The notes beneath the pieces were generated by a model. The model worked only from the letters and a program-made list of their open reading frames with translations, was not told the origin of the DNA and ran no database searches. 64,000 nt of DNA from a virus. The translations under genes were made by a program, and so were the position numbers. Positions 8,285 through 59,667 of the stretch are shown here, one piece after another (the first letter of the stretch is position 1; the number at the start of each line of letters is the position of its first letter). The stretch spans positions 1-64,000 of the IMG/VR virus record IMGVR_UViG_3300036715_002570. One strand, given 5' to 3'.

Positions 8285-8422
8285 ATGACCCATCAACTCC
8301 GACAATCCAGTTTGCAGCTCAGCCAACATTGGCTGGGGATGCTCTCCGTCCGTTCAGAGCTGTGTGGTGATTATAGCTTCGAACAACCCACGACCGCCCT
8401 TTGTGGAGAAACTCTAGCGTAA
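8285..8422 (+). CDS. attenuator leader peptide 1 (45 aa)
   Basis: MTHQLRQSSLQLSQHWLGMLSVRSELCGDYSFEQPTTALCGETLA; 3' codons complementary to terminator arm; weak SD. Confidence 0.75.
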   Translation: MTHQLRQSSLQLSQHWLGMLSVRSELCGDYSFEQPTTALCGETLA

Positions 8423-8444
8423 ACCGCGAAAAGTTCAGATCAAA

Positions 8445-8480
8445 CACAAAGGGCTCTTGAGAAATCAAGGGCCTTTTTTG
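8445..8480 (+). terminator. attenuator terminator 1
   Basis: AAAGGGCTCTTGA-GAAA-TCAAGGGCCTTTTTT. Confidence 0.85.
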
Positions 8481-8536
8481 TTTGCCTTGAGCAAAACAGT
8501 TAACGTCATCCAATTGGCTGAACCTCTGAACTGTCA

Positions 8537-8552
8537 CGATCTTTAACAATTT
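8537..8552 (+). promoter_or_regulatory. rrn-type boxA
   Basis: CGATCTTTAACAATTT vs TGCTCTTTAACAATTT. Confidence 0.7.
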
Positions 8553-8599
8553 GTGTTGTTCCGATAAGCCTAGTGCTTATCGGCAAACAAAAGTTCAAT

Positions 8600-8675
8600 G
8601 GTGGCCATAGTGTAGTGGTCTGCATGAGATGCTGTGAACATCTCGGTACCGGTTCGATCCCGGTTGGACACCCCA
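8600..8675 (+). tRNA. tRNA-His(GTG)
   Basis: Cloverleaf, G-1, CCA encoded. Confidence 0.9.
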
Positions 8676-8721
8676 AGTTGGGTTCAACGTAAATATATGT
8701 TGAACCCAACGGAGAACAGAA

Positions 8722-9180
8722 TTGCCAGCAAAGATCAAGATATGCACGCAGTGTAAAGCTGAAAAGCCACTCACTGATTACCGGAAGGATAGAAGCAGAT
8801 TAGACGGTCGAAACTCACATTGCAACGTGTGCGCTAGGGAGAAACAAAGTATTCGATATCAAGAAGTATATGCAGCGTCCCGATCGATTCGCGACAAAGC
8901 ACTTCGTGATGCGAATAAACAGAGAATAGATGAATACAAATCAAGTGGCTGCGTTCTTTGTCATGAAGACGAAACCAGCTGTCTCGATTTCCATCACCTT
9001 GATGCAGATAAGAAAGAGTTTGGAATTGGCGGGAACACGCATCGCACTTGGTCGTATATTGAGCGCGAGCTTGCTAAGTGTGTTCTTGTTTGCAAAAACT
9101 GCCATACAAAGATACATGCTGGATTGATTGAACTACTTTTGCCAATAAGCATTGGAACTGCGTCAGGAACCGCAGGATAA
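8722..9180 (+). CDS. HNH endonuclease
   Basis: CTQC, LDFHH, CKNCH..IH. Confidence 0.8.
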   Translation: MPAKIKICTQCKAEKPLTDYRKDRSRLDGRNSHCNVCAREKQSIRYQEVYAASRSIRDKALRDANKQRIDEYKSSGCVLCHEDETSCLDFHHLDADKKEFGIGGNTHRTWSYIERELAKCVLVCKNCHTKIHAGLIELLLPISIGTASGTAG

Positions 9181-9249
9181 ACATAACGCCGGACCGCTAA
9201 GAGACAGTCGAGTAGCCTTCAGACTGTGGAGTGCGATAAAGGAATAATT

Positions 9250-9324
9250 CGTCTCGTGGTGTATCAGTGCACACAGTCCGCGAGGGGCTGAGGAGTTGAT
9301 CGTTAAATTCGATCCGAGACGACA
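9250..9324 (+). ncRNA. tRNA-like RNA with non-canonical anticodon and T loops
   Basis: CGTCTCG/CGAGACG acceptor, D, anticodon and T stems all pair. Confidence 0.5.
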
Positions 9325-9327
9325 AAT

Positions 9328-9416
9328 GGATGATTGGCAGAGTGGTCGATCGCGGGAGTTTGCTAAACTCCAGGGCCTTCACAGGCCCCACAGGTTCGAA
9401 TCCTGTATCATCCGCA
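9328..9416 (+). tRNA. tRNA-Ser(GCT)
   Basis: Cloverleaf with long variable arm. Confidence 0.9.
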
Positions 9417-9423
9417 GATATAT

Positions 9424-9509
9424 GCCTTCGTGCAGGGAATTGGTAGACCGAGCACGCTCAAAACGTGTTGACTCGAAAGGGTGTGGGTTCGAATCCCACC
9501 GAAGGTACA
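9424..9509 (+). tRNA. tRNA-Leu(CAA)
   Basis: Cloverleaf with long variable arm. Confidence 0.9.
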
Positions 9510-9514
9510 AACAT

Positions 9515-9586
9515 CTCCGATAAGTGTTACGGTAGCACTTGACGTTTGGGGCGTTGGGCGCAGGTTCGATTCCTGCATCAGAGACA
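9515..9586 (+). tRNA. tRNA-Pro(TGG)
   Basis: Cloverleaf, some mismatches. Confidence 0.7.
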
Positions 9587-9603
9587 GAAGATGTGTGTAG
9601 TGT

Positions 9604-9681
9604 CTGGGTATATTGTCAGCCTGGCCAGACGGCTCGCCTTGGAAGTGAGAGGACGCAGGTTCGAATCCTGCTACCCAGACA
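9604..9681 (+). tRNA. tRNA-Pro(TGG)
   Basis: Cloverleaf. Confidence 0.85.
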
Positions 9682-9695
9682 GTACACATATCAAT

Positions 9696-9770
9696 CTCTC
9701 CGTGGTGAAACTGGATATCACAGAAGACTACGAATCTTCAGTTCCGGGCTCGAGTCCTGGCGGAGGGACA
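9696..9770 (+). tRNA. tRNA-Arg(ACG)
   Basis: Cloverleaf. Confidence 0.85.
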
Positions 9771-9853
9771 TAAACTGCTGCGTAGTTGACAGATACTTCA
9801 AAACTCAAATATGATACTACAAGATCAACTGTCGACGCCTTTGGCTCAGTTTA
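9771..9853 (+). ncRNA. Y-RNA-like RNA copy 1 (no tRNA module)
   Basis: TGCTGCGTAGT-stem-ATACTTC ... ACG-N7-CTCA motif. Confidence 0.5.
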
Positions 9854-9888
9854 CACGTATGCAGGGAAGAATAACAGAACATGATTAT

Positions 9889-9966
9889 TGGGGTGAAATC
9901 GAAGTGGCACGAGATACATGGCTTTGAACCATGGTATTAGTAGGTTCGAGTCCTACCACCCTAGCA
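9889..9966 (+). tRNA. tRNA-Gln(TTG)
   Basis: Cloverleaf. Confidence 0.85.
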
Positions 9967-10002
9967 TACAAGGAGACAGTTCAACTCCTTCCCTTTGCCA
10001 AT

Positions 10003-10077
10003 CTCACCTTAGCTCAACTGGAAGAGCACCTGTCTGAAGAACAGGGTGTTGCAGGTTCAAGTCCTGCTGGGGGAGCA
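10003..10077 (+). tRNA. tRNA-Phe(GAA)
   Basis: Cloverleaf, imperfect acceptor stem. Confidence 0.7.
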
Positions 10078-10084
10078 AAACATT

Positions 10085-10158
10085 ACCGCGTTAGTATATG
10101 GGTTATCATTTCTGGCTGTCTACCAGAAGAAAGGGGTTCGAGTCCCCTACGCGGTGCA
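10085..10158 (+). tRNA. tRNA-Asp(GTC)
   Basis: Cloverleaf. Confidence 0.85.
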
Positions 10159-10206
10159 CGTATGTTAGTTGACTGAAAACAGGTTATTCAGCTAACATGG
10201 AGTAAT

Positions 10207-10291
10207 GGAGTATTAGACAGTTATGGATGCTGCCGAGGCTGTAACCCTCGTGTCATTGACCACCTAGGTTCGATTCCTAGATACTTCACCA
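10207..10291 (+). tRNA. tRNA-Tyr(GTA)
   Basis: Cloverleaf, CCA encoded. Confidence 0.85.
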
Positions 10292-10292
10292 A

Positions 10293-10724
10293 ATGTTCGA
10301 AAATGTTGATACAGATATTCGTAAAAAGCAGGGCGACTTAGGTGTTGCGTGAGCTATCTATGAGTACGCCCGAAAAGGTTACGTAATACTTGCTCCACTA
10401 AGTGATAGCGAGAAGTACGATTTAGTCATAGATACGGGTTGTTCCTTGAAGAAAATCCAAGTGAAGACGTCACGCTGCAAGGTTAAAGATTACAAGAGAC
10501 AGTCAGACCGTACTGGTTATCAAGTAAATTTGGCAACGCGTGGTGGCAATACAACTAAGAATACTATTCGAGCACGCATTGATAGTGATTACGATGAATT
10601 ATTCGTTTTGTTGGAGACGGGTGACTGTTGGATGATTCCCACATCTGCTTTGGTAGATGCTCATCACACAATCAATCTAGGTTCTGCTAAACCAAATAAG
10701 TATGATCAGTACAAAGTAATATAA
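10293..10724 (+). pseudogene. PD-(D/E)xK homing-type endonuclease with in-frame TGA (10350-10352)
   Basis: KQGDLG...YDLVID...IQVK motifs. Confidence 0.7.
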
Positions 10725-10925
10725 GTTTTGTTAGTAGTTGGCACTTGAGTACGCATCCGTGAGGATAGCTAATAATTGTACCCTTCAAGTCCAGTACAAC
10801 GCGTTTGACGCTCAGCAAACGCAAATCTGGTGCCTGACCTGAGCAGTCAGGAAAGTCTCCGGTTGCGGCGGCCCTTTGTAAGGGAGGCCAGCGATCGAAG
10901 CCGAGTGCCAACTACTAACAAAATT
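10724..10925 (+). ncRNA. unknown structured RNA, about 200 nt
   Basis: 24-bp closing helix and several internal hairpins. Confidence 0.65.
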
Positions 10926-10927
10926 CT

Positions 10928-11003
10928 AGGGGCGTCGTCTAGCCAAGTTAGGACAGCGGGGTTTGACACCGCAAACGGAGGCTCGATCCCTCTCGCCCCC
11001 ACA
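10928..11003 (+). tRNA. tRNA-Gln(TTG), atypical
   Basis: Cloverleaf; mismatch at base of anticodon stem. Confidence 0.65.
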
Positions 11004-11045
11004 GGTTGAGTAACTCAACATACGCACACAAGTGCGGTTTGTAAA

Positions 11046-11255
11046 TTGCTCCCTGCTTGGATGGGCAATCCAATGCCGTTGATTCTTGATCATATCAATG
11101 GTATCAATAATGATCACCGTTTAGAAAATCTTCGATTCGTATGTAGTAATTGTGATTCACAGCTGCCAACATACAAATCGAAGAACAAAAAGGAGTGTAG
11201 GGTGCTTGGCGCACAACAAGCCTTGAAAACTTGCCTACTTGTGATGAACAGGTAA
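11046..11255 (+). pseudogene. HNH endonuclease remnant reading into tRNA-Ser
   Basis: LDHINGINND.RLENLRFVCSNC. Confidence 0.7.
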
Positions 11256-11281
11256 CAGTTCGATTCTGTTACACTCCTCCA
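11192..11281 (+). tRNA. tRNA-Ser(TGA), atypical (possible 8/4 fold, U73)
   Basis: GGAGTGTA/TACACTCC, short D loop, long variable arm, CCA. Confidence 0.7.
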
Positions 11282-11286
11282 ACTTT

Positions 11287-11362
11287 GTGCCCGTAGCATA
11301 ACTTAAAGGTAATGCAGCTCGTGAAGAGAGCAGGATACGGGTTCGAACCCCGTGAGGTACAC
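11287..11362 (+). tRNA. tRNA-Phe(GAA), degenerate
   Basis: Anticodon and T arms clear, weak acceptor. Confidence 0.5.
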
Positions 11363-11422
11363 ATAGCAAGAATTTGCTACAGCGGAAGCATGTAGCCGGA
11401 GTTGTAACACACTCCAACCAAT

Positions 11423-11495
11423 GACGAGTTGGTATAGTGGTAGTGCTTCGGATTGCAAATCCGAGGAGACAGGTTCGATTCCTGTACTCGTCTCA
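11423..11495 (+). tRNA. tRNA-Cys(GCA)
   Basis: Cloverleaf, U73. Confidence 0.9.
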
Positions 11496-11752
11496 TGATA
11501 CACAAAAGCACATGCCCTCCAGGCACATCACTGCACGCGATCAAGTACGTGTTCCTAAAGCCGGCTCGGTTAACCATCCGCAACGGTGAAGATCACACAG
11601 TGTACGGCTACGGAATCGGAGAACAGATTGAAGTACTCGAGCCGTCGATGCAGTATTTGGTTGCTGGCGGAGTGAAGCTTGAACAGATCCCGCTGGCTGA
11701 TGGCCGGACAATTGTCCAGTATCCAAATGATTTGTGTGTGCAAAGAGTTTAT

Positions 11753-11827
11753 GCCGCGTTAGACTAATGGTGAGGTCACCAGGCTTTCAACCTGGATGGA
11801 TGGGATCGTGACCCATACGCGGCTCCA
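11753..11827 (+). tRNA. tRNA-Glu(TTC)
   Basis: Cloverleaf, CCA. Confidence 0.8.
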
Positions 11828-11830
11828 AAT

Positions 11831-11904
11831 GATGAGGTAGCTCAGAGAAAGAGTACCTGTCTGCAAAGCAGGAAGTCGTAGGTTGAAGTCCTACCCTCAT
11901 CTCA
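11831..11904 (+). tRNA. tRNA-Cys(GCA)
   Basis: Cloverleaf, U73. Confidence 0.8.
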
Positions 11905-12008
11905 AAATCACAGAGTCCATGTGGGACGTTCCTTGCATCTTGGAGTGAGGCGAGGAAAGTAGGTTTAGGTGGGCACACTCCACAGCCTAGACTGAACTGT
12001 GATTCTTA

Positions 12009-12082
12009 CGTGGTGAAGCTAAATGGTCAGGCAGCAGTTTCATAAGCTGTGTATAGTGGGTTCGATTCCCACCACCACGACG
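12009..12082 (+). tRNA. tRNA-Met(CAT) (Ile2 identity cannot be excluded)
   Basis: Cloverleaf. Confidence 0.75.
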
Positions 12083-12189
12083 GAGGACTTGCCGGTTGGA
12101 AACGACCGCTGTATGTGGAAGATCATCCCGCGTCAGGGATGCCATGTATATCCAACAGACCTGTCGAAGCAAGATACAGCAGGTCCCTT

Positions 12190-12262
12190 AGGACGCCTGT
12201 GGGCTACAGACAGAGAACTCCAAATCCTCTAGTGCACAGTTCGACTCTGTGGCGTCCTGCCA
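12190..12262 (+). tRNA. tRNA-Trp(CCA), reduced D arm
   Basis: AGGACGC/GCGTCCT, CTCCAAA loop, CCA. Confidence 0.65.
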
Positions 12263-12324
12263 ATAGGTCATTAGTGTAACGGCAACATTACGGTCTCACA
12301 TCATAAATACGCGATGGAGACATT

Positions 12325-12963
12325 ATGATTACACTCTACATCAAAACACACAACGTAACAGGTCTTAAATATTTTGGCAAAACGGGATCCGCGGATCCAT
12401 ATAAGTACCATGGATCTGGGAAGTATTGGAAACGTCACATTGCAGTTCACGGATATGATGTCACTACGGAAATCATTGGGCAATTTGAGGATTTACAAGA
12501 ATGTTCTCGAATCGCCTTGAAGTTCAGTGAAGACCATCAAATCGCAACTTCCGATTTGTGGGCTAACTTCAAGGCAGAGAATGGACTAGACGGCGGATTT
12601 GCTCACTTAAACGATGGATCAGAAGCGCATCGTACACGGTGTGTTAGAGCAGGTAAGCGATCACAGGAATTACATCCAGAAATTAAAGAGAACTTAGTCC
12701 CAACGACTGCCGCTACTGCCGCTCTGGGTACGGCAACAAAATTGAATAAATATGGGACGTCTTACTTTTCAGACATCGCTAAATATGAAAAAACAGCCGA
12801 ACATAGACAAAAATTAGCCGAACAATCACGGGGTAATGGTGCAGGTAAAGCAAATAAAGGCTTAGTTCGATCTAAGATCGAATGCCCCCATTGTGGTAAA
12901 CTAGGTGCAAATAATGTGATGAGCAGGTTTCACCTAAACAACTGCAAAAAACGTTCAACATAG
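12325..12963 (+). CDS. putative homing endonuclease (GIY-YIG-like, C-terminal CPHC)
   Basis: LYIKTH..TGLKYFGKT...Y.GSG.YW. Confidence 0.7.
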   Translation: MITLYIKTHNVTGLKYFGKTGSADPYKYHGSGKYWKRHIAVHGYDVTTEIIGQFEDLQECSRIALKFSEDHQIATSDLWANFKAENGLDGGFAHLNDGSEAHRTRCVRAGKRSQELHPEIKENLVPTTAATAALGTATKLNKYGTSYFSDIAKYEKTAEHRQKLAEQSRGNGAGKANKGLVRSKIECPHCGKLGANNVMSRFHLNNCKKRST

Positions 12964-13036
12964 GAATATAGCTCAATTGGCAGAGCGTTGGTCTCCAAAA
13001 CCAAAGGTTGTAAGTTCGAGTCTGTGCGAACCTGCA
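12962..13036 (+). tRNA. tRNA-Trp(CCA), chimeric/degenerate
   Basis: Good D and anticodon arms; mismatched T and acceptor stems. Confidence 0.55.
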
Positions 13037-13043
13037 AATTTAA

Positions 13044-13118
13044 GCCGCTTTGGTACAGCTGGTGCGTACAGGAGCTTGAAACCCTTCAGGTCACGGTTCG
13101 ATTCCGTGAGGTGGCACA
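13044..13118 (+). tRNA. tRNA-Phe(GAA)
   Basis: Cloverleaf. Confidence 0.75.
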
Positions 13119-13187
13119 TAGATAAATAGTAGTACAACACCGCCCAGGTGGACAAATCTGGTAAATATGCCGTAACCTGGTATAAAT

Positions 13188-13667
13188 ATGTTTACCATGA
13201 AATACACCGAAGCACTCCTTCAACCTCTCGTTGAACAAACAAACACGTACTCAGGGTTGGCTAGATTGTTGAACCTAGCACCCGTGGGAAGCACAGTAAC
13301 ATATCTAAGAAAACGATGTGAACTGTTAGGATTAAATGTAAGTCATTTTGTTGGCCAAGCTTCCAATAAAGGAAAACCCTCTTTCAACAAGAAATCGGTA
13401 GAAGAAATCTTGGTGTTAGGTAAACAGCTAGATCGCCGAGCTGAGCGGCATCAGCTGATGCGAGCTCCATTGGAGCTTGGTATAGAATACAAATGTGCCG
13501 AGTGCACCATCCATAATGTGTGGAATGGCAAGCCATTAACACTTCAAATTGATCATATCAACGGCCAATATTGGGATAACAGAATAGAAAATCTAAGGTT
13601 CCTGTGTCCTAACTGTCACACACAGACGGTTACGTGGGGAACGCAAAACATTGGGCGTGTGGCGTAG
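13188..13667 (+). CDS. HNH endonuclease
   Basis: WNGKPLTLQIDHING...NLRFLCPNCH. Confidence 0.85.
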   Translation: MFTMKYTEALLQPLVEQTNTYSGLARLLNLAPVGSTVTYLRKRCELLGLNVSHFVGQASNKGKPSFNKKSVEEILVLGKQLDRRAERHQLMRAPLELGIEYKCAECTIHNVWNGKPLTLQIDHINGQYWDNRIENLRFLCPNCHTQTVTWGTQNIGRVA

Positions 13668-13728
13668 TAGGTAACCGTATTCGTCTCAAACACGAAGTCC
13701 TGAGGGTTCGAGTCCCTCCATGCCCACA
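13653..13728 (+). tRNA. tRNA-Leu(CAA), short variable arm
   Basis: TTCGT-CTCAAAC-ACGAA, short variable loop. Confidence 0.75.
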
Positions 13729-13732
13729 ACTT

Positions 13733-13829
13733 GTCGTTGTAGCTCAATGGTAGAGCGCGAAACTGACGCTTTCGGCGTGAAGTTCCCTTTCAAGGCGGAG
13801 ATGGTGGCTCAATTCCACCCAACAACACA
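13733..13829 (+). tRNA. tRNA-Glu(TTC)-like with hairpin insertion
   Basis: Extra ~25 nt between D arm and CTTTCAA loop. Confidence 0.5.
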
Positions 13830-13835
13830 AACAAT

Positions 13836-13918
13836 GCCCCCGTGGTAAATGCAAATTTGGCACAGCTACTACGTTTAGACCGTGGACTTTTGTCGGTTCG
13901 AATCCGACCGGGGGTACA
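13836..13918 (+). tRNA. tRNA-Leu(TAG), short variable arm, large D loop
   Basis: CTACG-TTTAGAC-CGTGG. Confidence 0.75.
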
Positions 13919-13925
13919 AAACTAA

Positions 13926-14315
13926 TCAACCCAACACCGACGGCAACTGAATATCGTGCCAGTTGATTCCAGCCTTAGTCATCTTACGGCGAAGCGTAGT
14001 CTGTTGTCGTCGAAGGCTAATACGCTCAGCAACCAATTGGTGCATAGTGCTGCTGATTCGAGCAGCAACGGGGTCAGCTTTATCGTAGTACAAGCCGCAC
14101 TCACTGCAGCGAGCGGTAATCGAAGTTGCTAAGTTAGGCCTAGCAAAGAAGTGCTTACCGCGATTTAGCAATGAGCTAGCTTTCAGCATCAAGTGATGAA
14201 CGTACTTAGACAGGTCAGCATCGGTCTGGGAGACAGCAAGGTACCGATCGACCAATCGGTTGTGATCAATTGGTGGAAGTTCATCAAACGGTGAGGCAAT
14301 TTCGATCAGTAGCAT
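13926..14315 (-). CDS. hypothetical protein, PF.ELP N-terminal family
   Basis: MLLIEIASPFDELP; ATAAATA upstream on minus strand. Confidence 0.55.
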   Translation of the reverse strand: MLLIEIASPFDELPPIDHNRLVDRYLAVSQTDADLSKYVHHLMLKASSLLNRGKHFFARPNLATSITARCSECGLYYDKADPVAARISSTMHQLVAERISLRRQQTTLRRKMTKAGINWHDIQLPSVLG

Positions 14316-14584
14316 GACGCGGTCCAAAGACAGTATTTATCGAGCGGCTAGTTGACGGGTAACACTTAACATAGGACAATCTGAAAACGGTGAAAATGAA
14401 CACAAATATTTGGAAACTAGATCTGCTTGATGTCGCAGTCGACATGGAGTTGCCGAGTGAAGCCTTGTGTAGGAAATTAAGTGAACTAATCACTGACATT
14501 GAGGCGTTGTACCGACCTGAAGAACTTCACAAGGAGTGGGTTGAAGCGTTTGAAGCTGGCGTATATGACGACTAAATAGAGCAT

Positions 14585-14674
14585 GGAAGGTTGTGTATCT
14601 GGTGATACAACTAACTTGGAAAGTTAGTCCGCTTGTGATGAACAGGCGACGGTTCGACTCCGTATCCTTCCTCT
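14585..14674 (+). tRNA. tRNA-Ser(GGA), atypical 8/4 fold
   Basis: 8-bp acceptor, 4-bp T stem, 5-bp D stem with TGGT loop. Confidence 0.7.
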
Positions 14675-14788
14675 GATTTGTTGCGTAGTAAACAGTTACT
14701 TCAATTCTGGAAAAATTGAGTGGACGGTTCGATTCCGTTTTAATGGTGGGCCAACTTTGTTCTCTGTTTGCGACTTCATCTCAAATCA
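14674..14788 (+). ncRNA. Y-RNA-like RNA copy 2 (T-arm module)
   Basis: Shared motif plus GACGG-TTCGATT-CCGTT. Confidence 0.6.
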
Positions 14789-14792
14789 ATAT

Positions 14793-14868
14793 CGGAGTGT
14801 AGCGCAGTCTGGTAGCGCATCTGCTTTGGGAGCAGAGGGTCCAAGGTTCGAATCCTTGTACTCCGACA
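14793..14868 (+). tRNA. tRNA-Pro(TGG)
   Basis: Canonical cloverleaf. Confidence 0.95.
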
Positions 14869-14966
14869 GTACGTGCTGAGGTAGCTCTTCAGCTAGGAGT
14901 TCAGAGCATTCCGAACGAACCGCTTAGCTGGCGGCAAAGCTCCGATCAGGTGTAAGGCCTGTCCAT

Positions 14967-15043
14967 GCGGGTAAAGTGTTTACGGTTACACGTCAGTCTT
15001 CCAAACTGAAATACTAGGGTTCGAATCCCTGTACCCGCTCCAA
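14967..15043 (+). tRNA. tRNA-Gly(TCC)
   Basis: Cloverleaf, CCA. Confidence 0.9.
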
Positions 15044-15183
15044 AAAGAATTGTGTTTCGCGACACAAAAGGTAGACAGAACGCGCTCGAGAGCTAGTAAG
15101 TCTACATCGCTTGGCGCTAGACCGTTAATCTAGCGCCAAGAGCATACAGGTTGGTAGGCATATCAACTGCGAGTATGCACCTT

Positions 15184-15258
15184 CAGGGTAGGAGGCGTGT
15201 GGTAGCCGATGACGTCCGGAGCGTTGTAGTCCTGGTTCAACTCCAGGTACCCTGACAG
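15184..15258 (+). tRNA. tRNA-Pro(CGG), atypical
   Basis: CAGGGTA/TACCCTG acceptor. Confidence 0.6.
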
Positions 15259-15404
15259 TTTGTTGTTGCATAGTGTAGGATTTCTTCATACTCAAGCAGC
15301 GATTTGTGGGTTCGAGTCCCACCTAGTCGGAAACGGCTAGTAGCCAAATTGGTAAAGGCAGCCGCCTCAAAAAAGCAGCCTGCGCGCCCACATCTCAACA
15401 AACC
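15258..15404 (+). ncRNA. Y-RNA-like RNA copy 3 with circularly permuted tRNA-Leu-like module
   Basis: T arm, GAAA-closed acceptor stem, D arm inside a GTTTGTTG/CAACAAAC stem. Confidence 0.7.
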
Positions 15405-15407
15405 ATT

Positions 15408-15481
15408 GCCCCCGTAGTTTAGTGGCTAGAACGCTGCCCTTTCAAGGTGGAGAAGACGGATCGAAACCGTTCGGGGGTACA
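15408..15481 (+). tRNA. tRNA-Glu(TTC)
   Basis: Cloverleaf. Confidence 0.85.
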
Positions 15482-15498
15482 TAACAATAAGGCCATAT

Positions 15499-15948
15499 AT
15501 GGACCAGAAGAAATGGGACTTACATTTCCTTGAGGAAGCGAAGCTGATCGCTCGCTTGTCGAAAGATCCTAGCACACAAACAGGTGCTGTGATTGTTGCT
15601 CCCGATGGGAAGCGAATTGTGTCGAAAGGCTACAACGGCTTCCCCAGCAAGATGAAAGACACACACGAGTATCTTCATGATCGCGACGAAAAGTATCGCC
15701 GGATCATTCATTGCGAAATGAATGCTGCAATGTTTGCACGAGAGCCACTTGCGGGGTGTACGCTGTACACATACCCTCTAACATCATGCGATCGATGCTT
15801 CGTCCACATGCTCCAGTACGGAATCACGCGCTTTGTCGGCCCGAGGGCGTCTGACGATATCCGCTCTCGCTGGGGTGACGCACTAGACTGGGTTAAGCGT
15901 GAAGCTGCTGCAGCAGGCGTCGAAATGGTTGAATACGATTTCGACTGA
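15499..15948 (+). CDS. dCMP deaminase
   Basis: SKDPST..GA, GYNG, HCEMNA, CDRC. Confidence 0.9.
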   Translation: MDQKKWDLHFLEEAKLIARLSKDPSTQTGAVIVAPDGKRIVSKGYNGFPSKMKDTHEYLHDRDEKYRRIIHCEMNAAMFAREPLAGCTLYTYPLTSCDRCFVHMLQYGITRFVGPRASDDIRSRWGDALDWVKREAAAAGVEMVEYDFD

Positions 15949-15953
15949 ACAAT

Positions 15954-16088
15954 TGTGAGATAGTGTAATGGTCAGCACGGTAAAAACACTCTAAGCGATT
16001 TTGACTCATCCTCATGGATGCTGCGTAGTGTCAGAGTTACTTCTCATTATCAGAGACTAGTGTAGGTTCGATTCCTGCTCTCACAACA
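15954..16088 (+). ncRNA. Y-RNA-like copy 4: tRNA body with the motif replacing the anticodon arm
   Basis: TGTGAGA/TCTCACA acceptor, D and T arms, internal TGCTGCGTAGT..TTACTTC. Confidence 0.65.
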
Positions 16089-16099
16089 ATTTTAACCAC

Positions 16100-16158
16100 G
16101 GGAATGTGGCAGAAGAATGCACATTCGGATGTAGGTTCATATCCTACCATTCCCTCAA
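16100..16158 (+). ncRNA. tRNA-like RNA lacking anticodon arm
   Basis: GGGAATG/CATTCCC acceptor plus T arm. Confidence 0.5.
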
Positions 16159-16399
16159 CATAAGGACATTAACATGTCTACTTTGAAACAAATGGTCTCT
16201 GACGGAAAGCAGGTGACGTTCAGTCACTTTCGCCGTAACGAACTTTGGTATACCACGGAATGTGGTTTCCAGTTCGCAGTTCCTGTATCTGACGTGGGTG
16301 ACGCAACATTCAATAGCACAGAAAAAGCTATGCTTAATGATGCGATACATTCGCAAGCAGCTGGAAGCAAATGAGGCAGGCCGTCAAGGCTAAGATTAT

Positions 16400-16473
16400 T
16401 GGGGTGTAGTATAACGGTTAGTACGATGGGCTCTGACCCCGTAGGACACGGTTCAACTCCGTGCGCCCTTGCA
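16400..16473 (+). tRNA. tRNA-Gln(CTG)
   Basis: Cloverleaf. Confidence 0.85.
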
Positions 16474-21113: not shown

Positions 21114-21129
21114 CCTTAATGATTCAGAG

Positions 21130-28361: not shown

Positions 28362-28433
28362 TCGGGCGTAGAGTAGGTATGAAGTGAGCTGTATACAGCT
28401 CACTTCACAGGTTCAATTCCTGTCACCCGAACA
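28362..28433 (+). ncRNA. tRNA-like element with perfect palindrome replacing D and anticodon arms
   Basis: Acceptor and T arm present; TGAAGTGAGCTGTATACAGCTCACTTCA. Confidence 0.45.
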
Positions 28434-28447
28434 AATAAGGATTTGCC

Positions 28448-29859: not shown

Positions 29860-29912
29860 CGCAACGCTCTTACACAGCGAAGGTCACAGGTTCGATCCCT
29901 GTAGCTCCTACA
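29839..29912 (+). tRNA. tRNA-Val(TAC)
   Basis: Cloverleaf. Confidence 0.9.
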
Positions 29913-30340: not shown

Positions 30341-30343
30341 ACT

Positions 30344-30430: not shown

Positions 30431-30433
30431 AAT

Positions 30434-31256: not shown

Positions 31257-31271
31257 ATAAATAGACGACTG

Positions 31272-47702: not shown

Positions 47703-47897
47703 GAACATTCAAAATTACGGTCAAAGCTCGCCGCGCCAAGATCGAATTTGCGCCCGGTATGGGCGTTGGAACTCTGGTGTCCCGGGAGATCAGCTCCCCG
47801 ACAACGCACGTGAGGTTGAGATGGGACTGATGGTTGACAATCTGTGTCAAGAGCTGATTCGAGATGCAATCGAAGTCACGACCGAGGAGGTCACGAA

Positions 47898-48995
47898 ATG
47901 AAGAAGTACCTCGTAGGTGGTGCGGTTCGTGACCTGCTGCTCGGGATCAAGCCGAAGGATCGCGACTGGGTGGTAGTAGGATCCTCTCCTGAGGAGATGC
48001 TCGCACTTGGATACCAGCAGGTAGGAGCATCTTTCCCCGTCTTCATTAAGGATGGTGAAGAATATGCACTGGCGCGTACCGAACGAAAGACGGGCGTTGG
48101 ATACAACGGGTTCGATGTCACGTTCGATCCTTCTGTCACATTGGAGGAGGACCTGATCCGCCGCGACCTGACGATCAACGCGATGGCGCTCGACATCGAT
48201 ACGTACCAACTGATCGATCCGCACGGCGGTCGCAGGGACTTACACAACGGAATCCTTCGCCATACCAGCCTCGCGTTCGCGGAAGATCCCGTCCGTGTTC
48301 TCCGCACAGCTCGGTTCGCTGCTCGGTACCAGTTCTCCGTGGATCCGACAACGATCCGTCTGATGTCCGACGTTGCACATGAACTTGTGCACGTGCCCCA
48401 AGAGCGGATCTGGGCGGAGTTCAAGAAGGGCCTGACGGAAGATACACCTCATCTGATGATGGACGTTCTCAGCCGCTGTGGCGCGTTGTCAACACCTGCG
48501 CTCGAGATCTACAGCCACGCCAATTTGGACATGATCCGGAATCTGTCCCCAACCCATCCAATGCACGTTCGCCTTGGCGCTGTGTTCCGGAACACAGTGG
48601 GTGACGTCAATGCGTGGTCGAAAAAGCTGAACAATGCGAAGATCCCTGCTGCATTGATCAAGATTCTCGTCACGTACCTGCGTGAGTATGACATCCTGTA
48701 CAACTACTGTCTGCAAGATGCGGATACACGCGTTCGGTTGCTTGACCGCCTTCGTGCGTTCTCGGATCCGAACCTGTTGTCACACGTGATGGATTGCATG
48801 ATCAACAACGATCTGATGTACTTCTACGTGTATCGCCCAATCCCGTCGTATCTGACCGGTCAGAAGGCGGCAGCTTTTCGTGATCTCGATACGATTCAAG
48901 CGAACGTTGACAGCGTTGCAATCGCTGCGTCAGTCGATACCAAGTCGATCAAGCAGGCGATTCATGATGCACGCGTTGCGGCATTGAGCAAGTAG
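47898..48995 (+). CDS. cca: tRNA nucleotidyltransferase (CCA-adding enzyme)
   Basis: [40 protein letters not shown]. Confidence 0.92.
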
Positions 48996-54514: not shown

Positions 54515-54677
54515 AGCAATCCTTCTTTCAAGTTATTTATCTGACCCCGTTGACTCAATAGGCTAAGTGACGGATAGTCAACGAACTGATTTCAACATCG
54601 CGATTGCAACTTTTCTTGCAGTTGCCATAAATACCCATACAGACAATCACGTCTACCAAATACAAGAGTTACACGAA

Positions 54678-54758
54678 ATGTTCACCACAACTGTTATCAC
54701 CGTCAAGGTCGTGACAAATGCGATTAAAAATTCGCAGGGGACTCTTCGTACCAATTAA
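54678..54758 (+). CDS. attenuator leader peptide 2 (26 aa)
   Basis: MFTTTVITVKVVTNAIKNSQGTLRTN. Confidence 0.8.
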   Translation: MFTTTVITVKVVTNAIKNSQGTLRTN

Positions 54759-54776
54759 GCATCTGCTAATTAACAC

Positions 54777-54814
54777 AAGAGCCCCGCAGAACTAGTTTCT
54801 CCGGGGCTTTTTTG
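54777..54814 (+). terminator. attenuator terminator 2
   Basis: AAGAGCCCCG...CGGGGCTTTTTT. Confidence 0.85.
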
Positions 54815-54889
54815 TTAGTTTGTCGAAATTGAAACCAGCTCGATTCCGCGCGTCAACATGCGAACCGCGGCAGCATTTCAACCAGATAC

Positions 54890-54905
54890 TGTTCTTTTAC
54901 AATTT
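54890..54905 (+). promoter_or_regulatory. rrn-type boxA
   Basis: TGTTCTTTTACAATTT. Confidence 0.65.
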
Positions 54906-54916: not shown

Positions 54917-54989
54917 GGGCTTGAAGCTTTAAGGTGAAGCAGCGGACTTTTAATCCGCAGAAGAGGGGTCAGTACCCTCCAGGCCTACA
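54917..54989 (+). tRNA. tRNA-Lys(TTT)
   Basis: GCGGA-CTTTTAA-TCCGC. Confidence 0.85.
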
Positions 54990-55003
54990 AATGTGTCTAT
55001 TGC

Positions 55004-55091
55004 TCCGTCCGGGCTGGCTTGGTGAAGGCCTCTGACTGTTAATCAGAAGGATGCAGAAAATGCATGCGAGGATCGTAACCTCGGGACGGAG
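55004..55091 (+). tRNA. tRNA-Asn(GTT) with long variable arm
   Basis: TCTGA-CTGTTAA-TCAGA, ATGCA/TGCAT arm, G73. Confidence 0.8.
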
Positions 55092-55110
55092 CAATAGACA
55101 CTTAGACAAT

Positions 55111-55186
55111 TCCTCTTTAGCTCAGTTGGTAGAGCGTTGCACTGTTAATGCAAATGTCGTTGGTTCGAACCCAGCAAGAGGAGCCA
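55111..55186 (+). tRNA. tRNA-Asn(GTT)
   Basis: Canonical, CCA. Confidence 0.95.
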
Positions 55187-55191
55187 AATTT

Positions 55192-55265
55192 GGGATGCAA
55201 GCTTTAAGGTGAAGCAACTGGCTCTTACCCAGTAGAACTCGGTTCAATACCGTGGCGTCCTACCA
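55192..55265 (+). tRNA. tRNA-Lys(CTT)
   Basis: ACTGG-CTCTTAC-CCAGT, CCA. Confidence 0.8.
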
Positions 55266-55267
55266 CT

Positions 55268-55340
55268 CTTCCGTTGGTGTAATTGGCAACACAGCTGGCT
55301 TTTACGCAGTCGTTCTCGAATCGTTGCCGAGGCGGAGGAC
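55268..55340 (+). tRNA. tRNA-Lys(TTT)-like, degenerate
   Basis: CTTTTAC loop, atypical T arm. Confidence 0.5.
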
Positions 55341-55629
55341 TTAGACGATTATAGAACAACATAATATCTGGAGACGAAATAGATGATTGGTGTCACGACC
55401 CTCTCGCGTGAAGAACGCGTTAAGCTGAAGAAGGCGCTCGAACGAATCGAGGAAGAAGCAACGAAGACGTACGCGATCACACTAAAGATCGTCGTCAAGG
55501 AAACTCGCAGTGACGACCTTGCAGAACCGGGAAGTGCAGTTGACAGCATTGTTGACGTGCTGCTACCTGGCTCTGAAAGGCTGGTCGTCCTCAACCTGAC
55601 GTTCCCTGACGAAGAATAACAGGACAAAT

Positions 55630-55703
55630 TACCGCGTAGCTCAGAAGTAGAGCAACACTCTTACAAAGTGAAGGTCGAGATTGCAAAATTCTCCGTGGCA
55701 ACA
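55630..55703 (+). tRNA. tRNA-Val(TAC), atypical
   Basis: CACT-CTTACAA-AGTG. Confidence 0.65.
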
Positions 55704-55707
55704 AAAT

Positions 55708-55783
55708 GGTCGCGTAGCTCAATTGGTAGAGCGTTCTCTTGATAGGGGGAATGGTTGTAGGTTCAACTCCTACCGTGGCCACA
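55708..55783 (+). tRNA. tRNA-Ile(GAT)
   Basis: Cloverleaf. Confidence 0.8.
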
Positions 55784-55788
55784 AATAT

Positions 55789-55862
55789 ACCCGCGTAATT
55801 CAGTGGTAGAATGCACGCTTGATAGGCGTGAGGTCGTAGGTTCAAGTCCTACCGTGGGTACA
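55789..55862 (+). tRNA. tRNA-Ile(GAT)
   Basis: CACGC-TTGATAG-GCGTG. Confidence 0.9.
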
Positions 55863-55923
55863 ATGTTTAGGATACGGTACTATACCATATCGACTCATAA
55901 ATAACTTCAGCACAGGAGTTAGC

Positions 55924-56562
55924 ATGCAGTCTATGGAAATTATTCGTCAGGTGGAGATTGAGCGGCTTATTGAGGCATATGCTGAAACAGGGTCAATCGC
56001 AGGTGTGGGTCGAGTGATGGGAATATCTGTTAAGGCTCCATGTGTTCGCAAGCTAATAAAGCAGCGCCTGGCAGCAGCAAGCCCATCATTAATGAAGGAG
56101 CATTCCGCCCGCGGATCGTATAGCATTGAGCAAATAAGAGCTGCAGTAGCGAAATCGATCTGTATGTCAGAAGTGTTGCGAGAAATTGGATTAAGTACAC
56201 ATGGGTCTTGCGCTAATGTAATCAAGCGAATCATGAAAGAACACAACATTCTTTCAGATCACTTTGATCCTGCTTTGGCGCTTCGTAAAGGTAACGCTCG
56301 TAGATGGTCACCAGACGAAGTGTTTATCGAGCACAGCCCAATCCCACGGGCCACTCTGCACACGCATGTTAAACGGCATAACGTAATTGGGACACCGGTG
56401 TGCAGTGAATGTGGAGTTGCAACTACTTACAATCGTAAGCCGATTTCTCTGACCGTTGACCATATAAACGGCGTTAGTGATGATAATCGAATAGAAAATC
56501 TAAGGTGGCTATGTCCAAATTGTCATTCACAGACGAGTACGTATTGTGGGAAGAACAAGTGA
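55924..56562 (+). CDS. HNH endonuclease (paralog of 35582-36223)
   Basis: VDHING.SDDNRIENLRWLCPNCH. Confidence 0.85.
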   Translation: MQSMEIIRQVEIERLIEAYAETGSIAGVGRVMGISVKAPCVRKLIKQRLAAASPSLMKEHSARGSYSIEQIRAAVAKSICMSEVLREIGLSTHGSCANVIKRIMKEHNILSDHFDPALALRKGNARRWSPDEVFIEHSPIPRATLHTHVKRHNVIGTPVCSECGVATTYNRKPISLTVDHINGVSDDNRIENLRWLCPNCHSQTSTYCGKNK

Positions 56563-56590
56563 CGGTGTTTCTTGCAGAGAAGTAAAGAAC

Positions 56591-56665
56591 GGGCCTCTAG
56601 TATAGGGGATATTATGCCGTGCTTGCACCGCAGAGACCTAGGGTTCGATTCCCTTCTCTCCTACA
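56591..56665 (+). tRNA. tRNA-Ala(TGC), degenerate
   Basis: CTTGCAC loop and T arm; broken acceptor. Confidence 0.45.
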
Positions 56666-57110
56666 AATAAAAAAGACATGCACACGATGCAAGCAAGAAA
56701 AGCTTCTACAAGACTTCACACGAGACTCATCCCAAAAAGAAGGACATTATTCTGCTTGTAAATTGTGCAAGCGTTTCACAGCCAGGATTCGTCATAAAGG
56801 TGATAATGTGGCGCAGGCGCGAAACAAGCTAAGAGTACAGCAAACATCGCAGATGATTCGTGATAAAAAGTCTTCAGGATGCATTGTATGTGGTGAGCTT
56901 GAGCCAGTCTGCTTAGATTTACACCACACGGATCCAAGTAAGAAAGACGTTGATCCAAACAAGCTGTGGAACCGTGTGTGGGATAAGTTCATGCAGGAGG
57001 CACAAAAGTGTATTGTCGTGTGTAGTAACTGTCACAAAAAGATTCATGCAGGGATGATCGTCAGCCAGTGTGACGGGACTGCAACAATGTTAAGAGCTGA
57101 TCAAGTGTAA
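56619..57110 (+). CDS. HNH endonuclease (paralog of 8722-9180; start uncertain)
   Basis: CTRC, LDLHH, CSNCH..IH. Confidence 0.75.
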   Translation: MLAPQRPRVRFPSLLQIKKTCTRCKQEKLLQDFTRDSSQKEGHYSACKLCKRFTARIRHKGDNVAQARNKLRVQQTSQMIRDKKSSGCIVCGELEPVCLDLHHTDPSKKDVDPNKLWNRVWDKFMQEAQKCIVVCSNCHKKIHAGMIVSQCDGTATMLRADQV

Positions 57111-57169
57111 GTGGTGACACGCCTCTCTCGTAAGGAGGAGAACGGAGTTCAATTCTCCGGATCAGCACA
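57096..57169 (+). tRNA. tRNA-Thr(CGT)
   Basis: Cloverleaf. Confidence 0.85.
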
Positions 57170-57173
57170 AATT

Positions 57174-57246
57174 GCCCCTATAGTTAAATGGTATAACAGG
57201 ACCTTTGTAACGTTCAGTCCACAGTTCGATTCTGTGTAGGGGCACA
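57174..57246 (+). tRNA. tRNA-Thr(TGT)
   Basis: Cloverleaf. Confidence 0.8.
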
Positions 57247-58080
57247 CACTGCAAACAATGGAGGATGCTATGACACAGCTAAACGCAGAACCAATGGAGT
57301 ACCGCGCAAGTCGGTAAACGGAGTTTCAAACAAGTTCAAACAAGTTCAAACGAATGTCTGAACTTTACAGGCACTTTTCCAAAGACTGGGAGCATGTACT
57401 TGATTACTCTGATCAAGCACTACTCGACTTGTACAACCAAGAATCATACGGTGGCCGCGTAGAGTCCAACAACGGATTCGCTGTCGGTAAGAAATGGTTG
57501 AACGTCTACGTAACAGCATGGAAACAATCGATCAGAGAAGGTACTCTGTTCGTCCATGAACTGTACGAAGACCCAGGTTTCCCACATTGGTGGCTAGATA
57601 GCGTACTGAAGGGTGTGTACGACAATCTAGACGTCTGGTGGCAAGACTACAGCAAGACGAAAGTACATCATGATCTCACAAGCGCTTCATAGCAAGTTTC
57701 TAACAAACACAGACGATACGGGCCGATTTGTTGTGTATTCACAGCGAACCGGTCGTCGGTACTACGTTGAGCCGATCGAAACACAACACACCCCCAAGTG
57801 GGGTTCAGTTGATCCAGCAACGGGTGAACTGATGCACAAGAAAGGCGATGGCAAGTACCGTGGCGGTGTCTCTCCAAAGGAGAGCCTGGTCACAGCTGAA
57901 AACGGGTTCAGCATCATTCATGAGCTTGGTATTGGCGTGAGCCCACACCATGCAATCGATGTGATTGATGCTAAGTATCCAGACAAAGCATAACAGGCCA
58001 ATGTACAAACAGTGTCCCGGGTTCATTGTTATGCTGTAGTAGGGTTTCCTCACTTTGTCCCACCTATACAAAGTGATACG

Positions 58081-58155
58081 GGGGCGGGGTGTTTACCGGA
58101 TAGCATATTACCCTTGCAAGGTTTTGGATCGAGTTCGAGTCTCGACGCCTCCACA
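58081..58155 (+). tRNA. tRNA-Ala(TGC)
   Basis: GGGGCG/CGCCTCC-type acceptor, CTTGCAA loop. Confidence 0.7.
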
Positions 58156-58448
58156 AACGCTGTTGATTTACCCTGTTGTAATCGAGAAGATTATGTCACA
58201 AATGGGAATAGTCAGGGGCGAGAAATGGAAAAAGCACTCGTGGTATTCGGTTGCACGATAGTTGGCGGTGGTGCTGGCTATCTAGTCAGCCCCGATGGAA
58301 CTGCCGTGACAATCGGAAGTGCAGTCGGTTTTCTGATTGGCTGCATGTTGGTCAGTGGCAGCGGCGGCGACGGCGGAAGTGCAGCGATCGTTGACCTGAT
58401 TGACGACCTCACTGACGGCTTCGCAACCAGTCACCACTGACAATTTTT

Positions 58449-58512
58449 GGGGATTAGTACAGCTGGAAAAACGCTAGCCTTGCACGCTTGAGTCAGGAGT
58501 TCGATCCTCCAC
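58449..58512 (+). pseudogene. tRNA-Ala(TGC), 3' truncated
   Basis: 5' half and T arm present; 3' acceptor strand missing. Confidence 0.55.
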
Positions 58513-58541
58513 CAGCTAGAAGTCAAACAAAGACAAATAAT

Positions 58542-58615
58542 AGCTCCATAGCTCAATGGTAGAGCACTGCGTTGACATCGCAGATACGAAGGTTCGATTC
58601 CTTCTGGAGCTACCA
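58542..58615 (+). tRNA. tRNA-Val(GAC)
   Basis: Cloverleaf, CCA. Confidence 0.9.
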
Positions 58616-59141
58616 ATTAAAGGAACATGATGATTTACGTCGCAGCACCACACAGCGACCCTGATCTTGCGATCAAGGACGCTAGGGTGCGCGAGTTCTA
58701 CGAGTTTGAGACCACCAAATATAGTCAGATGCCTGATGATTGGGTCTACTGGCAACAGTACAGTGAGCAAATGCTGAGCAAGTGTGACGGGATGGTCTTG
58801 CTGCTGCTAGAAGGCTGGGATAAGTCGACGGGCGTCCTCGCAGAACTCCGTACTGCCGAGACAACGGAATCCCATCCTCGTGACGGATGTCCGCTGGAAG
58901 CAGTTGTACGTTCCCGGACAGGGAATCGAATCATTCGTCATCAAACTGATAACCACTAAATAAGTGGTCCAGTTAAGGGAGCCCTTATGCGTCTGCAAGA
59001 CCTTTCATTCATCACAGAACAACAACTCCGTGAGCAAGCTGTTGCCCAACAGGCTCATGCTTTGCTAGAATCTGCAACTCCTGAGGAACTGATTTTGTCG
59101 GAACCTCGCAGCGCAGAAGACGTAATTGCGGAGTTGTACAA

Positions 59142-59495
59142 GTGATCGAAGTTCGCACGTGCATCTTGTTTCGTAAAACCTCGGTACAGCACTCACGTGA
59201 TCCGCGAGTGCGCGACAAGATCGTAGACTTCATCCGATTCAAGTCAGAGCACCCCCTTGAGTTGTATGGCTCGAAGGATCGTGCGTTTGCTAATGAAGGC
59301 AACTTGCGTGGTTTCATCCACGCAGGCCTAACGTTTGACGTTTCGATCGTGTACAAGATTGGGATGGTCGGTGGTAAGCGGACGTTGGATCTGTACGGCG
59401 TGTTCTCCCACGACGAGCTTGGTACAGGCCAGCCTCGTAACATCAATCGTCAACGTTCTGCTGGTGAAAAGCTGCGGAACCAAGAGATGGAGTAA
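59142..59495 (+). CDS. RelE/YafQ-like protein
   Basis: D..F..G.LRGF.HA.L..D.SIVY...HDEL pattern. Confidence 0.55.
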   Translation: MIEVRTCILFRKTSVQHSRDPRVRDKIVDFIRFKSEHPLELYGSKDRAFANEGNLRGFIHAGLTFDVSIVYKIGMVGGKRTLDLYGVFSHDELGTGQPRNINRQRSAGEKLRNQEME

Positions 59496-59510
59496 CGCTC
59501 CATCTTTCAT

Positions 59511-59583
59511 GCTCTGTTAGTATAGTGGGATAATAACTCCTTGGTACGGAGTAGACACAGGTTCAATTCCTGTACAGAGCACA
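59511..59583 (+). tRNA. tRNA-Thr(GGT)
   Basis: ACTCC-TTGGTAC-GGAGT. Confidence 0.9.
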
Positions 59584-59594
59584 AAACATCGCCT

Positions 59595-59667
59595 GGTGAG
59601 CGTAGCGGGTGACACCTCCTCTCCTACAAAGAGGTATTGCAGGGTTCGAACCCAGCCGTGGCCACCA
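59595..59667 (+). tRNA. tRNA-Val(TAC), degenerate
   Basis: CCTCT-CCTACAA-AGAGG, CCA. Confidence 0.55.

Follow-up and report, generated by a model that had tools for sequence, protein, structure and literature searches.

Candidate leader-peptide attenuators matched in codon content to the two tRNA arrays of a jumbo phage

RESULTS

Two tRNA arrays lie behind leader cassettes of the same layout

The window analysed here (64,000 nucleotides, positions 1 to 64,000 of the IMG/VR virus record IMGVR_UViG_3300036715_002570) is the first 64 kb of a linear viral contig of 150,677 bp, with 52% G+C and an estimated completeness of 64%. It carries two tRNA arrays, each preceded by a short open reading frame (ORF), called here leader 1 and leader 2, which are the subject of this report. 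tRNA calls by ARAGORN and Rfam bore out an earlier note on this DNA, according to which array 1 serves 14 amino acids and array 2 only Lys, Asn, Val, Ile, Ala and Thr, that is, 14+6 = 20 amino acids together. Ahead of each array we found, in the same order, a promoter-like site of the sigma70 type, a T4-late-type CATAAATA motif, which we take to be a late promoter by analogy with T4 gp55 promoters, the short ORF, an intrinsic terminator and a boxA. The layout that the note had described (leader ORF, antiterminator/terminator, boxA, tRNAs) could thus be located part by part for both arrays:

8142-8171, + strand: sigma70-type promoter, TTGACT-18-TATACT, ahead of leader 1; conserved in four relatives
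8230-8237, + strand: T4-late-type promoter motif CATAAATA, 48 nt 5' of the leader 1 start
8285-8422, + strand: leader 1 ORF, 45 codons; sensing stretch codons 3-35 (8291-8389)
8396-8405, + strand: antiterminator strand 1 (codons 38-41), conserved in 5 orthologues
8445-8484, + strand: intrinsic terminator 1, hairpin of ~-18 kcal/mol and U tract; 5' arm ~25 nt past the stop
8538-8551, + strand: rrn-type boxA 1, putative Nus antitermination signal
8601-16472, + strand: tRNA array 1 (His, Ser, Leu, Pro, Arg, Gln, Phe, Asp, Tyr, Cys, Glu, Met, Trp, Gly)
54550-54578, + strand: sigma70-type promoter-like site ahead of leader 2
54626-54633, + strand: T4-late-type promoter motif CATAAATA, kept by most orthologues
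54678-54758, + strand: leader 2 ORF, 26 codons; sensing stretch codons 3-18 (54684-54731)
54737-54749, + strand: antiterminator strand 2, pairing with 54775-54785
54775-54817, + strand: intrinsic terminator 2, hairpin of -19.4 kcal/mol and U tract; orthologues show compensatory changes
54890-54904, + strand: rrn-type boxA 2, motif match
54917-59667, + strand: tRNA array 2 (Lys, Asn, Ile, Thr, Ala, Val); HNH ORFs and degenerate copies lie in between

In leader 1, positions 8396-8405 are the exact complement of 8445-8454 at the 5' base of the terminator, giving a perfect duplex of 10 bp. The terminator 5' arms begin 18-25 nt after the stop codons of both leaders. Among 80 terminator-like hairpins in the 150-kb contig, only these two join a short ORF, an antiterminator of <=-17 kcal/mol and a late promoter. 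The boxA consensus is likewise present ahead of the stable-RNA genes: the only two close matches adjoining tRNAs are those at 8538 and 54890, both are conserved in orthologues, and Nus antitermination would act there. Array 1 is interspersed with endonuclease-like ORFs, degenerate tRNA copies and one dCMP deaminase, and no strong + strand terminator was found inside it (8601-16472).

Each leader uses the amino acids of its own array

All 14 array-1 amino acids occur within codons 3-35 of leader 1, together with a single Val, and the whole peptide is devoid of Lys, Asn and Ile. Codons 3-18 of leader 2 are 16 consecutive Thr, Val, Ile, Lys, Asn or Ala codons, with all six amino acids used. The match to the own array was 97% for leader 1 and 93% for leader 2, and fell to 9% and <=33%, respectively, when the arrays were swapped. 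Shuffling the nucleotides of the sensing DNA rarely reached the observed match and coverage (P = 2.5e-4 for leader 1, <=5e-5 for leader 2), and the other reading frames matched the own array at 56-59% (leader 1) and 0-13% (leader 2). The composition match claimed by the earlier note therefore exceeds what nucleotide shuffles produce and is special to the leader frame. For both leaders, the regulatory codons are cognate to the function of the regulated genes. No amino-acid biosynthesis or synthetase operon was found downstream, where tRNAs, endonuclease-like ORFs and the dCMP deaminase lie instead.

The leaders probe most of the distinct anticodons of their arrays (17/20 for leader 1, 9/10 for leader 2). 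Matching at the level of isoacceptors appears modest, and we do not claim it: 414 of 454 codons are readable by own-array anticodons, with 384 expected under uniform synonymous use. Two refinements were considered and dropped. The lone Val codon of leader 1 might have answered to the sole possible Val element of array 1, an odd tRNA-like sequence at 13733-13827 with a GAC loop and a 28-nt insert; orthologues have Val, Ala or Leu in this column regardless. A logic of biosynthetic amino-acid families behind the array split was rejected as well, the partitions having no consistent family pattern.

Orthologues keep the frame and the amino-acid alphabet

BLASTN of both leader regions against GenBank phages returned tRNA matches only. 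Exact leader patterns retrieved G001 alone among viral contigs, one unrelated chance match in metagenomes and nothing in GTDB genomes; these scans, which did not survey bacterial tRNA arrays, gave no evidence of a bacterial copy of these particular leaders. Since the leaders diverge too fast, relatives were sought through neighbouring proteins: a 22-sequence alignment of the CCA-adding enzyme worked on IMG/VR, whereas single-protein and two-sequence pattern scans failed. This route yielded four further orthologues of leader 1 and eight of leader 2. Ten orthologues retain both the frame and the alphabet.

In these orthologues the start is conserved, all indels are multiples of three, so that the frame is kept, and 31 extra synonymous codons were counted (12 and 19). 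Column states stayed inside the array alphabet in 58/62 and 30/35 cases, with outsiders only at codons 2-5 and in one leader 1 column; random single-base changes would be expected to stay in the alphabet in only 42% and 69% of cases. Both ORFs (45 and 26 codons) thus look translated and lie between the promoter and the regulated genes. Compensatory changes in the stem of the leader 2 terminator (4 cells; 6/500 shuffles) are weak evidence, as a slid control scores similarly.

Leader composition follows array content in other jumbo phages

A structure-first scan covered tRNA regions from 15 IMG/VR jumbo genomes and found matched leaders in 10 of them; with the cultured Ralstonia phage RsoM2USA, this makes eleven other jumbo phages. 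Three (G001, G004, G005) share the partition of the window. Other partitions with matching leaders occur in RsoM2USA, G002, G003, G006, G007, G008, G012 and G013. In RsoM2USA, one array serves Met, Ile, Asn, Gln, Lys, Arg, Phe, Ala, Val, Pro, Asp and Thr and the other Pro, Cys, Glu, Tyr, Leu, Trp, Ser, His and Val, and its leaders (L006:42249-42362, and L008:18047-18124 on the minus strand) match at 27/27 and 19/20 sensing codons. A leader of 19 codons in G003 uses Tyr, Phe, Ile, Cys, Lys, Glu and Met and stands ahead of exactly those tRNAs. Leaders of smaller range were found in G006 (Leu, Ser, Trp, Tyr), G008 (Leu, Ser, Tyr, Cys, Glu, Trp) and G013 (Pro, Asn, Ser), while in G007 a leader with Met, Ile, Lys, Cys and Glu has a GTG-started partner that covers the rest. 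In most leader-bearing phages, two arrays jointly cover 19-20 amino acids.

Permuting 22 leaders over the arrays gave an observed score of 7.8 against a null of 0.08 +/- 1.0, and 0/200,000 random leader-array assignments reached it; the score is inflated by the shared ancestry of some pairs, and at least 7 distinct partitions are involved. The earlier note had proposed to check for conserved leaders whose composition co-varies with array content, and this check was passed both in the comparison of relatives and in the permutation. No matched leader was found in XacN1, G009, G010, G011, G014 and G015, the array start of G014 and G015 possibly lying outside the DNA scanned. The element is therefore common among jumbo phages, as judged from their sequences, and not universal.

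An ORF for an ArfA-type ribosome-rescue protein (Pfam match above the cut-off) comes first behind the terminator in RsoM2USA and G002, a placement that would be in line with a translation-stress operon. These short homologues (L008:17842-17964, minus strand; L017:15714-15830) are without the C-terminal tail of E. coli ArfA, and the one in RsoM2USA apparently went unrecognised in the annotation. A structured RNA of ~500-800 nt, shared by G012 (L118, ~21100-21900) and G007 (L110, upstream of 66833), lies between the attenuator and the first tRNA; it had no Rfam match at the gathering score, and a guess that it was GOLLD was not confirmed. GOLLD RNA and amber-suppressor (CTA) tRNAs do occur near arrays in relatives (L140 and L141, upstream of His tRNA arrays; G001; RsoM2USA). 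The Lys/Asn/Ile/Thr/Ala/Val block itself recurs in distant phages (the window, G001, G004, G005), and all six amino acids have purine-starting codons.

The match ends where the modelled switch lies

To place the switch, the nascent RNA was folded with a ribosome on each codon in turn, with a fixed footprint of 13 nt. In this model the antiterminator dominates up to codon 34 in leader 1 and 15-16 in leader 2, and then collapses, which puts the switch at codons 34/35 and 16-18. The first off-array residue after the matched run is at codon 36 in leader 1 and codon 19 in leader 2, adjoining the modelled switch, and the two boundaries also coincide in RsoM2USA (23/24, 30/31) and G003 (12/13). Pooled over 21 leaders, a count that leaves out orthologues of the window's leaders, in-array codons made up 398/456 (87%) before the switch and 97/190 (51%) after it (Fisher p = 1.5e-21). 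Among 26 leaders, 22, most of them unrelated in sequence, have an antiterminator duplex near the stop at p <= 0.025. Computed folding with the assumed footprint thus yields mutually exclusive antiterminator and terminator structures, placed so that a stalled ribosome would free the antiterminator strand and a finishing ribosome would cover it.

With no ribosome, leader 1 and both RsoM2USA leaders are predicted to adopt the antiterminator (read-through) fold, whereas leader 2 and the G003 leader lean to the terminator. Since leader 1 folds to the read-through form in this model, failed initiation would also switch its array on, unlike in trpL. No 1:2 super-attenuation hairpin was predicted for leader 1.

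A third tRNA cluster and the surroundings of the leaders

The earlier note had described the two arrays as partitioning all 20 amino acids. This holds for the two arrays themselves, but the note had missed a third, leaderless tRNA cluster:

28362-35532, + strand: dispersed cluster of ~10 tRNAs, mostly minor isoacceptors (among them Val-TAC, Ser-TGA/CGA, Leu-TAA/TAG, Arg-CCG/TCT/CCT and Thr-TGT)

We looked for an attenuator ahead of this cluster (28362-35532) and found none. In G001 its tRNAs are contiguous with array 1. Codons special to it (TTA, TCG, CGG, AGG, AGA) have zero use in the sensing stretch of leader 1. Lone tRNAs lie at 63201 and at genome position 68614. A low-threshold "Pro" call at 56576 in array 2 proved by BLAST to be a degenerate Ala tRNA.

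Other irregularities were noted among the tRNA genes. The tRNA bodies at 13733-13827 (28-nt insert) and 15954-16086 (~56-nt insert) have inserts in the anticodon/variable region, degenerate tRNA copies are found at 9250, 11293, 12262, 55268, 56590, 58450 and 59590, and several broken HNH-type endonuclease ORFs lie within 8700-35500. Inside array 1, a YrlA-like Y RNA with a permuted tRNA-like domain (15258-15404; weaker at 9911-10055 and 13701-13756) matches the whole model of Rfam RF02553 at 29.5 bits (E 0.0036), under the gathering score, and is partly conserved in G001.

Two genes for tRNA-related enzymes stand upstream of the leaders:

3971-4923, + strand: T4 Rnl1-type RNA ligase, two ORFs, upstream of leader 1
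47844-48995, + strand: CCA-adding tRNA nucleotidyltransferase, upstream of leader 2; synteny shared with RsoM2USA and relatives

The ligase is split over two ORFs in L141 as well. Degenerate tRNAs, broken HNH ORFs and the split Rnl1 may reflect ongoing decay or assembly error. The best cultured matches of the large ATPase, of the next gene and of the CCA-adding enzyme are in RsoM2USA (39-55% identity), with gene order kept, which makes the window's phage an RsoM2USA-like jumbo phage by its gene content. No RNA polymerase is annotated in the RsoM2USA genome (PMC8504454), and for this reason the host RNA polymerase probably transcribes the phage, which is something attenuation needs.

Two further genes deserve mention. 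The AAA ATPase at 22057-25701, which adjoins a vWA-like gene, is interrupted by an intein-like endonuclease insert (residues ~380-750), and PHROG labels such as terminase derive from this insert only. Just past the window, a peptide release factor gene (G000 64729-65409; L001:2729-3409) has an in-frame UGA at codon 36, at an identical position in G001 (L093), L134, L021 and G004 (L103), at 46-77% identity. This release factor is probably gated by read-through and self-regulating, a second translation feedback device.

DISCUSSION

We read the sequence anatomy, the composition match, its conservation, the way it co-varies from phage to phage and its ending at the modelled switch as the marks of two transcription attenuators that depend on the ribosome and that very probably close a feedback loop on tRNA supply. 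In this model, host RNA polymerase would initiate at either promoter, the early one of sigma70 type or the late one of T4 type, and a ribosome would translate the short leader. With all cognate aminoacyl-tRNAs plentiful, the ribosome would enter the last 8-11 codons and cover the antiterminator strand, the terminator would fold, and transcription would end before the tRNAs. Slow decoding at any sensing codon, its tRNA being scarce, cleaved, uncharged or unmodified, would leave the antiterminator strand free to capture the 5' arm of the terminator. The polymerase would then read on, pick up Nus factors at boxA and transcribe an array with tRNAs for exactly those amino acids. The trigger may be cleavage of the PrrC/AriB type, amino-acid starvation, tRNA turnover or general ribosome slowing. 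The earlier note's reading of a tRNA-pool sensor stands on the comparative test and on the codon-by-codon geometry of the attenuator; nothing singles out PrrC/AriB-type cleavage.

Several points weigh against this model. The Shine-Dalgarno signals of both window leaders are weak. Trp, Tyr, Phe, Cys, Asp and Pro have one codon each in the sensing stretch of leader 1, which makes its sensitivity to each amino acid doubtful, as classic attenuators use runs. Late-type motifs inside the arrays (12302, 13181 and 55896), ahead of endonuclease-like ORFs, may act as internal promoters and bypass the control for distal tRNAs. The antiterminator, conserved as it is, has no two-sided changes in the close family, no pause hairpin was identified in the leader folding, and a fixed 13-nt footprint on RNA folded at equilibrium makes for a crude model. 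Two of the three G002 leaders (2a and 2c) fit poorly or in part, and leader 6a of G006 is uninformative, its array covering 18 amino acids.

One alternative is that the ORFs are untranslated. The terminators would then serve to end transcripts from upstream or small RNAs made close to the promoter, and the composition would be due to chance or would mirror RNA structure and base composition. Besides the weak ribosome-binding sites of the window, this view could invoke the shortness of the ORFs and the choice of candidates from a few frames per terminator; yet shuffles that keep base composition fail, many at P <= 5e-5, far past a 4-fold choice of frames, other frames mismatch, indels come in frame-preserving lengths, synonymous changes have built up, and the terminators are not needed by any gene upstream. 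We regard it as very improbable. The leaders might instead sense ribosome speed in general, like whiB7 or antibiotic-inducible upstream ORFs (uORFs), the codon match being a historical by-product or a tuning of the threshold, and both arrays responding together to any translation stress. Read-through as the modelled default of some leaders, the co-regulation of ArfA in two phages and the induction of the Anabaena tRNA operon by general translational stress (PMC8421152) would all suit such a sensor. It has no need, however, for alphabets that track each array over many independent partitions and end at the switch codon. A general speed sensor is for us an unlikely explanation, and neither it nor chance accounts for the co-variation.

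A narrower sub-case of the feedback model, with the same mechanism and another purpose, is that the attenuators were selected as counter-defence: they would fire once a host anticodon nuclease (PrrC, PARIS AriB, retron PtuAB, OLD, Schlafen) has destroyed one tRNA, which the array would then replace. A single codon for an amino acid is better suited to the almost complete loss of one tRNA than to mild starvation, the leaders probe most of the distinct anticodons, and Rnl1 and CCA-enzyme genes lie beside the leaders. Phage tRNAs are known to rescue from tRNases (PMC11555353, PMC11464382), and tRNA cleavage has been tied to the firing of the mycobacterial uORF attenuator of whiB7, which is induced after VapC5 cleaves a tRNA (PMC10287673). 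On the other hand, all 20 amino acids are monitored, yet the known tRNases hit few tRNAs, and the partitions vary among phages with no pattern traceable to nuclease targets. We hold counter-defence possible but lean against it as the sole purpose. The coverage of many amino acids by a single codon points to one of two signals, the almost complete loss of one tRNA or a slowing summed over many codons. The loop may have been selected against host tRNases, against a general decay of the pool during a long infection, or against both.

Classic attenuators of amino-acid operons include the multivalent thrL (Thr/Ile) and ilvL of ilvGMEDA (Ile/Leu/Val), as well as trpL, hisL, leuL, pheL and pheM ahead of pheST. 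These enterobacterial leaders share with those of the phage a short ORF rich in regulatory codons, an antiterminator at the ORF end, a terminator ~20-30 nt past the stop, and, as the signal, slow decoding for lack of charged tRNA. They control biosynthetic enzymes or synthetases, whereas the phage leaders would control tRNAs themselves; the latter are also phage-encoded, lie behind a late-type promoter and ahead of boxA, and monitor 3 to 16 amino acids at once, often with one codon each. None of the Rfam amino-acid operon leader families tested (Thr_leader, His_leader, Leu_leader, Trp_leader, Phe_leader) matched at the gathering threshold, the best being His_leader (21.1/49 bits) and Thr_leader (13.7/55), with no match for leader 1. 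T-box riboswitches likewise report tRNA charging through a terminator/antiterminator switch, but they bind the tRNA directly via a specifier loop with no translated ORF, and the T-box model (RF00230, stem I with specifier loop and T-box bulge) had no Rfam match in the window. In mycobacteria, stalling on uORFs of whiB7/wblC and on polycysteine small ORFs also gives read-through; these attenuators control transcription factors or enzymes and have no array-matched alphabet.

Among tRNA operons, the trn operon of Anabaena PCC 7120 (tRNA L-array) is similar in being a long array with a homing endonuclease that is silent until translation stress (PMC8421152). It differs in having a protein repressor, TrcR (PMC10272220), a single array and no codon match, and the paper on it mentions neither attenuation nor leaders (PMC8421152). 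The phage tRNA clusters of T5, XacN1 and RsoM2USA are also large and accompanied by tRNA helpers such as CCA enzyme and RNA ligase, and have been discussed as counter-defence or pool replacement (T5 tRNA-rich region, PMC11555353; T5 tRNA-Lys against PARIS, PMC11464382; XacN1, PMC5852040; RsoM2USA, PMC8504454). They have been described as driven by strong promoters or with no analysis of regulation, and no attenuator is mentioned in the RsoM2USA and XacN1 genome papers or the T5 tRNA study (PMC8504454, PMC5852040, PMC11555353). A genome-wide survey of bacterial attenuators does not mention tRNA genes as targets (PMC2965389). Our literature search, which missed most subscription journals, found no published attenuator for tRNA genes, in agreement with the novelty supposed by the earlier note. 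The control would be of the trp-operon style and work like thrL and ilvL, that is, by a known mechanism whose use on tRNA genes appears new.

Leader-peptide attenuation would thereby extend from enzymes to tRNA genes, and from 1-3 to up to 16 monitored amino acids. It is a tempting proposal, to which we give somewhat less than an even chance, that these leaders represent a widespread, unpublished class of programmable multi-codon attenuators. Jumbo phages would audit the whole cellular tRNA pool, divided into two or three blocks, and turn on just the one with the failing tRNA, an inducible counter-measure to tRNA-destroying immunity, and the leader would be rewritten when tRNA genes move between arrays. 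A cultured example exists in RsoM2USA, and the cassettes, of 150-250 nt, could serve as codon-specific translation sensors. The reason for phage tRNAs has been debated for 50 years, between codon compensation, replacement of a degraded host pool and evasion of tRNases (PMC10264068). These rival ideas would become directly testable, as a reporter behind each leader would read which tRNAs fail, when, and in which host. A leader that calls for tRNAs only when its own codons stall would mean that the phage treats tRNAs as an on-demand supply.

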